A stretch of 44,926 bases of DNA from an uncultured Gammaproteobacteria bacterium (lineage in GTDB: Bacteria; Patescibacteriota; Patescibacteriia; UBA9934; GWF2-40-263). Below the pieces are notes generated by a model that was not told the origin of the DNA, did no database searches, and worked only from the letters and a program-made list of their open reading frames with translations. Location of the stretch: the NCBI GenBank assembly GCA_964471375.1, contig CAYYFM010000073.1, positions 1 through 44,926 of the forward strand. Direction: 5' to 3'. This document shows, one piece after another, positions 7,394 to 10,666 of this stretch (position 1 is the stretch's first letter; each line of letters opens with the position of its first letter). The translations under genes and the position numbers were made by a program.

Positions 7394-7924
7394 ATGATCC
7401 GCATCTCTCAACCTGCGCCAAATTTCACAACCGTGACGGCTTATAAAAAAGGAACAGACGGTTTCACGACCGTGAGTTTGTCTGATTACGCTGGCAAATG
7501 GCTCGTGTTCTTTTTTTATCCACGCGATTTCACCTTCATCTGCCCAACAGAGCTCAAAGGATTTTCTACACACCGTGCTGAGTTCACAGCTCTGAACGCC
7601 GATATTCTCGCGGCATCAACCGATTCAGAATGGAGCCACAAAAATTGGTTTGAACGCGACTTGCCTGAAGTCGATTACCCGATCCTCGCTGACAACACCC
7701 ATTCGATCAGCGAAGCATACGACGTGTACAATCCAGCGGACGGACTCGCCGAACGCGGAACATTCATCATCGACCCAAGCGGTGTCGTCCGCTACGCCCT
7801 CGTCTCCTCAGGCTCTGTCGGTCGTTCTGTCTCGGAAACTCTCCGCGTCCTCAAAGCTTTGCAGTCCGGCGAACTATGTCCAGTTGAGTGGAGTACAGGC
7901 GAAAAAACGCTAGGTAAAGCGTAA
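7394..7924 (+). CDS. 2-Cys peroxiredoxin (AhpC/Prx1 type)
   Basis: Peroxidatic motif FFFYPRDFTFICPTEL and resolving-Cys motif GELCPVEW. Confidence 0.9.
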   Translation: MIRISQPAPNFTTVTAYKKGTDGFTTVSLSDYAGKWLVFFFYPRDFTFICPTELKGFSTHRAEFTALNADILAASTDSEWSHKNWFERDLPEVDYPILADNTHSISEAYDVYNPADGLAERGTFIIDPSGVVRYALVSSGSVGRSVSETLRVLKALQSGELCPVEWSTGEKTLGKA

Positions 7925-7979
7925 AAAACAAAAAAGACGCTTGACAAAGGCACCCTTCCAAACAAACCAACTTCTCACA

Positions 7980-8250
7980 ACACGATCCACTTCCGCGAGC
8001 GCTCGCACCGCCCGCCGGAAGCGTCAACTGTCACATTTGGGGGAAACGTTCCCCTGCGGGTGAAAAGGCACACCGTGACAGTTATACCAGACGGCCGCAC
8101 GAACGGATCTGAAATCGTGCGACGGAAGTCCGTCGTGAGAGCGCCCTTTCATCCCAACACAGTCGGGAACGGAACTCTCTTTAGGAACTTGGCAGGCTGT
8201 CAGCGGATTTTTCAGGAAGAAGCGAATTCTGAATCCGATTTATTTTCACA
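7980..8250 (+). ncRNA. candidate structured non-coding RNA, family unknown
   Basis: GC-rich non-coding gap between convergent genes with at least five stable hairpins:
- CTTCCG/CGGAAG, 7990-8021
- AACTGTCAC/GTGACAGTT, 8026-8083, enclosing GGGGAA-acg-TTCCCC and GGTG-a8-CACC
- CGCACGA/TCGTGCG, 8096-8121
- GACGG-aagt-CCGTC, 8121-8134
The stretch ends in a stem (8204-8237) plus a U-rich tail. The strand assignment comes from that tail. No convincing -10 box was found. Confidence 0.35.
8204..8246 (+). terminator. putative intrinsic terminator at the end of the candidate RNA
   Basis: CGGATT..AATCCG stem followed by ATTTATTTT. On the minus strand the stem is not followed by a T-run. Confidence 0.45.
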
Positions 8251-8255
8251 TGTCG

Positions 8256-8486
8256 TTACACTCCAAATATTTTTTTCATTTTCTTTTCATCATACCCAAC
8301 AATAATCTCATCTCCAATCTCAATCACAGGCACACCCATTTGGCCAGTTTTTTTAATCATTCTATCTGCTGATTCGCTGTCAGCGGAAACGTCGATATCA
8401 GTGAATTTCACCTTATGCTCGGCAAGAAATTTTTTTACGAGTTTGCAATACGGGCAGGTCGGGGTTGAATAGACAGTTACGGTCAT
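8256..8486 (-). CDS. glutaredoxin-like protein (NrdH/Grx family)
   Basis: YSTPTCPYCKLVKKFL (CPYC active site) and GVPVIEIGDEIIVGYD. Start set at ATG 8484-8486 (MTVTVY); the upstream extension is repeat sequence. Confidence 0.85.
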   Translation of the reverse strand: MTVTVYSTPTCPYCKLVKKFLAEHKVKFTDIDVSADSESADRMIKKTGQMGVPVIEIGDEIIVGYDEKKMKKIFGV

Positions 8487-8825: not shown

Positions 8826-8867
8826 AAAATTGAAGAAATCTAAACGCTAAACGCTACACACTACTCC

Positions 8868-10364
8868 CTACAGGGACCTCAAGTACTCAATCAACGTCCT
8901 GACCCCGTGACCCGTGCCTCCTTTTGGCGTGTATGCGTTGATTTGTTTTTCTGCAAAAGCAGGACCAGCGATGTCGAGATGGACCCAAGGAATTCCGGCG
9001 ACGAATTCTTGAAGGAGTAGTCCAGCGGTAAGCGAACCGCCCCATCGTGGAGCATCATTTTTGTAATCTGCAATGTCGGTTTTGATCAGTTCTTTATACT
9101 GCTCTGGCAATGGAAGCTCCCACATGTTCTCGCCCGCTTCGGCAGCAGCGGCGAGAACTTTTCTTCCGAGAGCGGGATTGTTTGTCATGAGTCCTGTGAA
9201 CTCTTCACCAAGAGCGATAACACACGCTCCTGTCAGCGTGGCGAGATCAATAATCACATCTGGTTTTTGTTTTGTTGCGTACGTGAGTGTATCTGCAAGT
9301 GTCACACGACCTTCGGCATCGGTGTTTTTAATTTCAATTGTTTTGCCATTCATGATCGTAACAACATCTCCTGGACGAATTGCCTTGCCTGAAGGCATGT
9401 TTTCCACGGCGCCGAAAATTCCGTGAACTTCGGCGTCTGGTGCTAGTTTATCGATCACAGAAAAAACCCCAAGCACAGCCGCCGCCCCAGCCATATCACA
9501 TTTCATCGTTTCCATTGAGTTTGCTGGTTTGAGTGAAAGTCCACCAGAATCAAACGTCACGGCCTTTCCAACAAGCGCGATCCGCCTTATGCCTTTCCCT
9601 CCGACCCTCCGAACCTCAGGACCTTTCGTTCCCTTTGGTCTATAAACCATGTGCACCAAAAACGGCTCGTGCTCTGACCCTTGTGCAATTCCTAGCAAAC
9701 CACCACAACCCATCTTTGCAAGCTGATCACGACCAAAAACTTTGAGCTTGATCGAACCTTTCCCTTTCGCGATCGTTCGTGCAGATTCAACCAAATCCTC
9801 CGGTCGCATGTGCGCGGCAGGAGTATTGACAAGATCTCGTGCAAGAATCGTGCCATCCGCCTCCAGATTCGCGCGAACCAATTGCTCCCCCGCTATCCGA
9901 GCAAGGCGTGCATCGTCGGTAACCAGTTCGAACATCTTCGGTGATGAATTATCTTCATCCTTTTTATATCTTCCAAAAGAGTAATCCGCCAATCGAATCC
10001 CTTCAATGATTGCATGCGCAGATCCAAACAAATCACACACCACAGATTTTACTTTGACAGATTTTACCGCCTTCAAGGCACTTGCTCCTGCCTCCCGCGC
10101 TTTTTCATCAGTAAATTTTTTCTTTTCTCCGAGCCCAAGGAGAACCACACGCTTTGCGTTCAATAAACCGCTCGTTCGAATCATCAAAACAGACCCAAGT
10201 TTTGGCTTGAATCCTTCCTCCTTACAAATCGTTTCGATGAGACCGTCCAACGCTTTATTCACCATCGCCGATGTTCCGCTCAACTTTGTGTCAAGAAACT
10301 GACTGACAATGAGAACGTCTGATTTTTCCTCTAAAATGTTTGCTTTGCGAGTCGTAATATTCAT
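8868..10364 (-). CDS. pepA: leucyl aminopeptidase (M17)
   Basis: VGKAVTFDSGGLSLKP, MKCDMAGAAAV and NTDAEGRVTLAD motifs. Confidence 0.9.
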   Translation of the reverse strand: MNITTRKANILEEKSDVLIVSQFLDTKLSGTSAMVNKALDGLIETICKEEGFKPKLGSVLMIRTSGLLNAKRVVLLGLGEKKKFTDEKAREAGASALKAVKSVKVKSVVCDLFGSAHAIIEGIRLADYSFGRYKKDEDNSSPKMFELVTDDARLARIAGEQLVRANLEADGTILARDLVNTPAAHMRPEDLVESARTIAKGKGSIKLKVFGRDQLAKMGCGGLLGIAQGSEHEPFLVHMVYRPKGTKGPEVRRVGGKGIRRIALVGKAVTFDSGGLSLKPANSMETMKCDMAGAAAVLGVFSVIDKLAPDAEVHGIFGAVENMPSGKAIRPGDVVTIMNGKTIEIKNTDAEGRVTLADTLTYATKQKPDVIIDLATLTGACVIALGEEFTGLMTNNPALGRKVLAAAAEAGENMWELPLPEQYKELIKTDIADYKNDAPRWGGSLTAGLLLQEFVAGIPWVHLDIAGPAFAEKQINAYTPKGGTGHGVRTLIEYLRSL

Positions 10365-10666
10365 ACCGAGAAACCGTACACGATCGGAAGCGTCATGGCA
10401 ATAAAGATAAGCGCGGAGATGAGAAAGGTGTGATAGGCCCTATCGCGATGGTCGCTACAATCACGTCCTTTACACCATGCAAGAGAAAAGAAAAAAATGA
10501 TCGCATACACAGAGACAACAAACAAATACAAAGAACCGAGCGAATCAACAAGATTGGATCGATACCAAATGAGATTGAGAATCCATCCTGCGTGCAACGC
10601 GGCAGAAGCAGCAACGAGTGCGGCGACGGCAATGGATTCGTGGATGCGTTGTTTGAATGGGAACAT
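10361..10666 (-). CDS. small integral membrane protein
   Basis: 101 aa with about 3 TM segments. ATGA overlap with the pepA start. Confidence 0.5.
   Translation of the reverse strand: MFPFKQRIHESIAVAALVAASAALHAGWILNLIWYRSNLVDSLGSLYLFVVSVYAIIFFFSLAWCKGRDCSDHRDRAYHTFLISALIFIAMTLPIVYGFSV

Follow-up and report, generated by a model that had tools for sequence, protein, structure and literature searches.

We found that the gap between a peroxiredoxin gene (prx) and a glutaredoxin/NrdH-like gene (grx) in a Patescibacteria genome probably holds an unclassified structured RNA. The central part of the gap is non-coding, and its conservation in a second species of the genus exceeds, at the nucleotide level, that of the adjacent coding sequence. 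Our preferred reading, offered tentatively and with a little less than even confidence, is that this is a lineage-restricted RNA made in the sense of grx, being the structured 3'UTR of the pepA-DUF1636-grx operon or a small RNA (sRNA) derived from that 3'UTR. Such a 3'UTR RNA would probably act as a 3' stabiliser or as a binding platform.

Results

The locus

The window (the whole stretch of DNA that was analysed, 44,926 nucleotides) belongs to a 1.14-Mb, 98%-complete Patescibacteria assembly (here G000). An earlier note on this DNA had described a gap of about 330 nt between convergent genes, and we measured 331 nt (7925-8255) between prx on the plus strand and grx on the minus strand (Table 1). 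The closest named homologues of grx are those of Candidatus Uhrbacteria. In its run of genes, grx comes last, after pepA and DUF1636 ([2Fe-2S] thioredoxin-like), and SOD and peroxiredoxin genes adjoin this redox operon; a link of the element to these surrounding oxidative-stress genes is possible. The GC content is 0.57-0.59 across 7950-8174 and 0.47 in the whole window. The gap had been called markedly GC-rich relative to its surroundings, which is true in comparison with grx and the genome but not with prx, the 3' half of which is equally GC-rich (0.57-0.60).

Several other features of this neighbourhood were observed. The intergenic site between prx and grx is rearranged in nearly every species of the genus, and in most congeners it holds a lipoprotein-like gene of 283-290 aa (N-terminal signal and Cys; '...AVYTLDL...'; L015 596-1468 and L003 1909-2760) that is missing from the whole G000 genome. 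Long palindromes of GTAGCGTGTAGCG-type words flank the prx and DUF1636 genes (window 7286-7392 and 8845-8862), and the candidate RNA contains none of them. In addition, the pepA start region (..TGACGCTTCCGATCGTGTACGG..; window 10330-10375) shares the words GACGCTTCC and GATCGTGT with both flanks of the H7 hairpin (window 7975-8026), a likeness that is weaker in the second species (L087, about 705-755).

Table 1. Positions of the genes and of the predicted parts of the candidate RNA in the window.
Feature	Position	Strand	Remarks
prx, 2-Cys peroxiredoxin gene	7394-7924	+	
Second terminator-like hairpin, ACGCU..AGCGU + UUUUUU	7897-7922	-	In last prx codons; -5.6 kcal/mol, z -2.5
Whole candidate RNA region	7923-8255	-	grx stop codon to distal U-tract
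Distal terminator-like site: stem GGGUGC/GCGUCU, loop CUUUGUCAA, then UUUUUGUUUUUU	7923-7955	-	Weak, -5.0 kcal/mol
G/U-rich linker (C/A-rich on plus)	7956-7987	-	Partly alignable with G007 (GGAUCG.UGUU..GUUGG)
H7 hairpin, GC-rich	7988-8023	-	-24.2 kcal/mol minus (z -2.7) vs -14.7 plus
Conserved 179-nt core, domains P1-P4 and P5/P5a/P5b	8022-8200	-	Identity, fold z, alifold, CM R1
Domain B: three-way junction P5 (8075-8084 with 8025-8034)	8025-8084	-	One compensatory pair (U-A to C-G)
P5a (8071-8073/8060-8062) and P5b (8050-8054/8040-8044)	Domain B	-	Junction strands invariant
Domain A: P1 (8191-8194 with 8085-8088) closing P2, P3 and P4	8085-8194	-	Consensus structure
P3: GACG (8131-8134) with CGUC (8090-8093), enclosing P4	8090-8134	-	Intact in both species
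P4 hairpin, CGCACGA/TCGTGCG	8095-8122	-	One compensatory pair (A-U to G-C)
P2 helix, GAGAGUUCC / GG.CGCUCUC	8137-8179	-	One compensatory pair (C-G to U-A)
H1 hairpin, CGGAUU..AAUCCG, inner CAG/CUG stem	8204-8237	-	-6.8 kcal/mol minus, -9.6 plus
grx, glutaredoxin/NrdH-like gene	8256-8486/8501	-	Stop 8256-8258; start 8486 or 8501

A conserved core with a predicted two-domain fold

Homologues were searched for with BLAST against 60 relatives and with a covariance model of the core (CM R1) against 73 genomes of the family, 9 of the genus (E<=10) and 151 of the class. The earlier note had proposed a search of related genomes, which yielded one congener (G007, DAISXX010000033.1; found by BLAST and by the core covariance model) but brought the total to only two species. 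CM R1 scores the two copies at 220 and 202 bits. The element is single-copy in G000 and in G007, and in G007 it is also directly downstream of grx, with a 283-aa gene as its other neighbour where G000 has prx.

Between the two species, the 179-nt core is 85-88% identical, compared with a DNA identity of 76% for grx, 70% for DUF1636 and 68% for pepA. The core is thus conserved at the nucleotide level above the coding sequence next to it. The two genomes differ by 14 points in GC content (47% in G000 and 61% in G007), and the element is intermediate in both (0.53-0.58). Outside the core, identity falls to 70% in H1, and the 3' part, which is about 175 nt longer in G007, can hardly be aligned. 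This difference between the core and its flanks argues for selection on the core and against uniform youth of the whole element, though the high identity could partly reflect a recent transfer instead of constraint.

The RNAalifold consensus of the core comprises two domains with 43 pairs, among which three show compensatory changes (one each in P2, P4 and P5), two show one-sided changes and none is broken. Its energy is -51.6 kcal/mol (z = -5.4 against 300 column-shuffled alignments), and when the MFE structure of the window copy is mapped on the alignment, 92% of the cells are paired, compared with 35-50% when the partners are slid. With two sequences the covariation counts are not significant (they were reached by 25 out of 300 column shuffles and 71 out of 500 pair shuffles), and the structural claim therefore rests mainly on thermodynamics and conservation. 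The earlier note had named absence of conservation and of covariation in relatives as findings that would speak against a structured RNA. Our results come close to both of these, as the element is conserved in two species only and covariation cannot reach significance with two sequences.

Two of the helices that had been picked out from the window are kept in G007 with compensatory changes. These are AACTGTCAC/GTGACAGTT (8026-8034/8075-8083), which closes a three-way junction, and CGCACGA/TCGTGCG (8096-8102/8115-8121), the 12-nt loop of which (UUUCAGAUCCGU, 8103-8114) is identical in both species. Two further helices are present in the window but were not recovered as such in the congener. The hairpin GACGG-AAGU-CCGUC (8121-8134) has lost three out of five pairs in G007, and the long-range helix P3 is conserved instead. 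The stem CUUCCG/CGGAAG (7991-7996/8017-8022) forms the outer part of H7, and in G007 this position is taken by a 12-bp hairpin with another sequence, one G.U pair of which would be C.A on the other strand. The two copies are also separated by a 17-nt indel, which corresponds to a complete hairpin at the tip of P2 (8152-8168) that is found in the window genome only.

As a separate observation, the hexamer at the tip of P5b (8044-8050) is palindromic in both species through a double change (AACGUU in the window and AUCGAU in G007). A kissing-loop self-contact or a DNA-level site could account for this palindrome, but the comparison comprises two sequences only and a coincidence is possible.

Distribution across the genus and beyond

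The element is present in two out of nine species of the genus. The seven other congeners gave no match even at E<=10, and CM R1 found no element in 71 other genomes of the family or in 150 of the class. A pattern search of 185,579 species-representative prokaryote genomes, checked with the covariance model, returned 49 matches, of which only the one in G007 was real. Two pattern scans of JGI metagenome contigs gave 0 matches and 9 chance matches, a pattern scan of IMG/VR viral contigs gave 8 chance matches only, and blastn against phage and plasmid records gave nothing. We also inspected the neighbourhoods of eight close grx homologues in public assemblies: the element was missing from seven, and the eighth is the G007 species itself, represented by six contigs with identical copies. 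In a tree of pepA, DUF1636 and grx, G000 is the sister of G008 (100/100 support) and G007 falls outside this pair. Since G008 has no element, either loss or transfer is needed to explain its distribution, and the element must be dispensable.

This patchiness raises the alternative that the element is a non-functional relic, in which foreign or mobile DNA was inserted beside the grx terminator in one lineage and was then passed on or exchanged through recombination, the two copies being similar because they are young. The helices would then stem from a former life (e.g. as the end of an insertion sequence or of an intron) or be fortuitous. In agreement with this idea, every lineage shows a rearrangement of the site, with the 283-290-aa gene kept or missing and with different terminators. 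G007 keeps a terminator-like hairpin without a U-tract between grx and the element, and the element matches neither host genome in GC content. On the other hand, it is single-copy in both genomes, and neither phages, plasmids and viral contigs nor the species genomes other than that of G007 contain a match. Inspection by eye showed neither inverted nor direct terminal repeats, and the element is adjoined by neither a transposase gene nor an RT gene. The uneven identity described above suggests selection on the core, and the substitutions within helices keep pairing. We consider a relic unlikely, while regarding it as a serious competitor of the 3'UTR reading.

Strand and termination

Both species fold better in the grx sense. 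Compared with dinucleotide shuffles, the minus strand of the core has a z-score of -3.63 in the window (0 out of 200 shuffles) and -3.45 in G007, whereas the plus strand has -1.92 (6 out of 200) and -1.61. For the whole 331 nt, the z-scores are -2.39 (minus) and -1.60 (plus). The distal terminator-like site of the window (7923-7955) has a U-tract in the grx sense only, and its homologue in G007 is a strong, bidirectional terminator. In the stem of this site, the window has three substitutions, each of which leaves a G.U pair in the grx sense but a mismatch on the plus strand. The G.U pairs of H7, in both species, can likewise form in the grx sense only. We favour the minus strand on account of the fold z-scores of the two species, the 24 kcal/mol hairpin at 7988-8023 and the G.U-only stem of the distal site, and estimate it to be roughly twice as likely as the plus strand.

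Between the grx stop codon and the element, neither G000 (window 8255-7956) nor G007 has a grx-sense hairpin followed by a U-tract, so that transcripts of the operon should run through the element. In the window, the hairpins with a U-tract in the grx sense are located at 7955-7923 and 7922-7897, and both are weak (-5 to -5.6 kcal/mol). Among the six other congeners examined, a terminator hairpin follows grx at once in five, and in the remaining one (G006) grx is overlapped by the end of the next gene.

The earlier note had favoured the opposite strand, with an independent sRNA of about 270-300 nt. This RNA would start after the prx stop codon near the TTGACA at 7941, continue through a single-stranded, C/A-rich 5' region into a structured body, and end in H1 with its U tail (8204-8245). 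The stem and U-rich tail on which this view was built are indeed present: on the plus strand, H1 looks terminator-like (8204-8237 followed by ATTTATTTT / AUUUAUUUU) and is more stable than on the minus strand (Table 1), with AUUUAUUUU behind it. Of the one-sided changes, several allow G.U pairing on the plus strand alone. Moreover, a plus-strand hairpin with a U-tract is found at the grx-proximal end in both species, the one in G007 facing the same way beside the grx stop codon, and thus a plus-strand transcript fits this end as well. The TTGACA is conserved in both species, inside the loop of the distal terminator, and G007 has a plausible -10 hexamer (TAGCCT) at a distance of 17 bp.

Folding nevertheless favours the minus strand, as the z-scores of the plus-strand core are low in both species and H7 loses 10 kcal/mol on that strand. 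No acceptable -10 hexamer is found in the window 15-19 bp after the TTGACA, and a promoter scan of the window found none. Furthermore, H1 is kept in G007 (as GGAUUC..GAAUCC) and no U-tract follows it there, so that its conservation is not explained by a function as terminator, and the grx-proximal hairpin of G007 is weak on both strands. An independent plus-strand sRNA is rather improbable in our judgement.

Candidate targets of the RNA were also searched for. An 18-nt exact match (GGATCTGAAATCGTGCGA) connects the P4 loop and stem (window 8105-8122) with C70:10969-10986, inside an ORF of 450 aa that resembles an FAD-oxidoreductase (blastn, E=0.005). G007 has no equivalent second site for this match, which is probably due to chance. 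Predictions with RNAduplex against the start regions of neighbouring genes gave only loop-ridden, unconvincing duplexes.

Comparison with known RNA families

The first reading of the window had found no match by eye to tmRNA, SRP RNA, 6S RNA or common riboswitches and had proposed an Infernal/Rfam search. We ran this search on both copies and found no family. With Rfam 15, the gap had no match at gathering thresholds, and at E<=10 the window copy gave only sub-threshold snoRNA noise that overlaps the coding end of grx. The G007 copy gave only noise from terminator-like sRNAs (E>=0.45).

On the plus strand, two short strings (GGAAGUCCG and GGGUGAAAAGGCAC) are reminiscent of the P4 and J11/12 regions of bacterial type A RNase P RNA (RF00010). 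Members of this family have a P1-P4 core with the strands of the P4 pseudoknot in the order 5' GGAAAGUCC ... ACAGAA 3', and occur as a single essential copy per genome. In the element, by contrast, the strings stand in the wrong order, as had been noticed from the sequence, and lie on the less-favoured strand, and no covariance-model match was found in 7850-8350 at E<=10. The resemblance is coincidental: rnpB of G000 is located at C21:11260-11677 (150.3 bits, model positions 1-367). The gap likewise gave no match to tmRNA (RF00023; tRNA-like domain and tag ORF), the genomic copy of which lies at C10:7100-7567 (106 bits). 6S RNA (RF00013) forms a rod of some 185 nt that opens into a large bubble in the middle and, as a housekeeping RNA, would be expected in all relatives. 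It was not detected anywhere in the G000 genome at E<=10, and we reject it as an identity for the element, the predicted fold of which is multi-branched instead of rod-like and which is missing from seven out of nine congeners.

SRP RNA is recognised by its domain IV hairpin, which has a GNRA tetraloop as well as symmetric and asymmetric loops that are conserved, and its partner is Ffh. Neither the small (RF00169) nor the large (RF01854) model matched the gap or the G000 genome, and small SRP RNA was absent from all 40 relatives of the order that were searched (41 genomes with G000). In the six-frame translation of G000 we found no PF02978 or PF00448 domain and no SRP GTPase motif, i.e. neither Ffh nor FtsY, and the controls of the motif scan (EF-Tu, IF2, SecY, SecA and FtsZ) were all detected. 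The idea that the element is a 'missing' SRP RNA can thus be rejected, as Ffh and FtsY are gone too and seven out of nine congeners do not have the element. The absence of SRP has been published for Parcubacteria and other CPR (PMC4508563, PMC8080830), and since this loss is a published CPR trait and Ffh and FtsY are missing, no orphan housekeeping role is left for the element. In our sample of 81 genomes of the phylum (G000 and 80 others), the loss of SRP RNA, Ffh and FtsY appears to hold throughout. Finally, the hairpin of G007 at the position of H7 recalls domain V of group II introns (GAGC...GUUC, with a G.U pair). We rejected this likeness by eye because the hairpin lacks both a bulge and a GNRA loop and because the window copy does not have the motif.

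The element is similar in several respects to the large or mid-size orphan RNAs that comparative genomics has revealed, such as raiA motif RNA, HEARO, OLE, ROOL and GOLLD. It has multi-helix junctions with invariant unpaired nucleotides, stands out by its GC content from an AT-richer genome, and is likewise an orphan that lies elsewhere than in a 5' leader. These RNAs are all in Rfam, however, and the element matches none of their covariance models even at E<=10; they are also represented by hundreds of sequences with significant covariation, in contrast to the two sequences here. A bolder version of our reading sees the 179-nt core as an independent functional RNA unit of a new class, namely a sensor for a ligand or a protein, or a small ribozyme, which would lie in an unusual place, the 3'UTR of a redox operon of ultra-small CPR bacteria. 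The invariant 12-nt loop and the junction strands would then form an active or binding site. We regard this as a long shot.

Coding potential

The element is non-coding. The 81-aa ORF with a GTG start (8060-8305), which the earlier note had not found credible, has no homologue among 5.8 billion proteins, and neither the ORF translations of the window nor those of the G007 copy match Pfam. When we compared G000 with G007, the codon changes in the element were 4-7 synonymous against 11-14 non-synonymous in all six frames, none of which looks coding, whereas grx has 29 synonymous and 14 non-synonymous changes. One grx-sense frame is open across the core in both species (42 aa in the window). The codons in this shared frame differ by 5 synonymous and 13 non-synonymous changes, the ATG of the window is AAG in G007 and the stop is not conserved. 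In addition, the length of the indel between the two copies is not a multiple of 3. The gap also shows no similarity to the 283/290-aa gene that relatives have at the same place.

We therefore reject the idea of a coding or decayed gene, on the basis of the substitution pattern, the Pfam search and the comparison with the 283/290-aa gene. Convergent genes and terminator-like hairpins that face both ways do resemble some type I toxin-antitoxin loci. Such a locus would have a conserved ORF for a small hydrophobic peptide, overlapped by an antisense RNA, but we found neither a conserved ORF nor a coding substitution pattern, and the ORF and frame translations that we read contain no peptide of hydrophobic appearance. 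A gene for a small protein, a gene remnant and a type I toxin-antitoxin locus are consequently all largely refuted and very unlikely, even though both species share one open frame across the core.

Discussion

We propose that the gap holds the structured 3'UTR of the pepA-DUF1636-grx operon. Transcription of the operon would run through the element and stop at the distal hairpins and U-tracts (about 7955-7897). The stable 3' hairpin H7, together with the compact core, could then protect the mRNA against 3'-to-5' exonucleases that act on its 3' end. Instead of this, or besides it, a stable 3'UTR-derived RNA of 250-330 nt might be released, whose invariant loops (UUUCAGAUCCGU, GGUAUAAC and UUUCACCCGCAGGGG) would bind a protein or another RNA.

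CpxQ from cpxP, SroC from gltI and the icaR 3'UTR of Staphylococcus aureus are reportedly examples of structured 3'UTRs or 3'UTR-derived sRNAs. The element resembles such RNAs in that it directly follows a stop codon with no apparent terminator in between and would share a distal terminator with the mRNA, and in that its structured body is conserved beyond the expectation for intergenic DNA. Such RNAs usually measure 50-150 nt, contain one or two hairpins plus a defined seed and require Hfq, ProQ or RNase E. The core of the candidate RNA differs from these with its 179 nt and its eight predicted helices in two junctions.

The finding is real but narrow, and its reach is small, as the element is present in two species only and is dispensable in the closest relative of the host. 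Genomes of Patescibacteria (CPR) comprise about 1 Mb and contain very little non-coding DNA, which makes a conserved non-coding stretch of 330 nt costly and therefore probably functional. To our knowledge, almost nothing is known about regulatory or structured RNAs in these bacteria. If the element stabilises or regulates an oxygen-defence operon as its 3'UTR, it would be among the first RNA-level controls described in the phylum.
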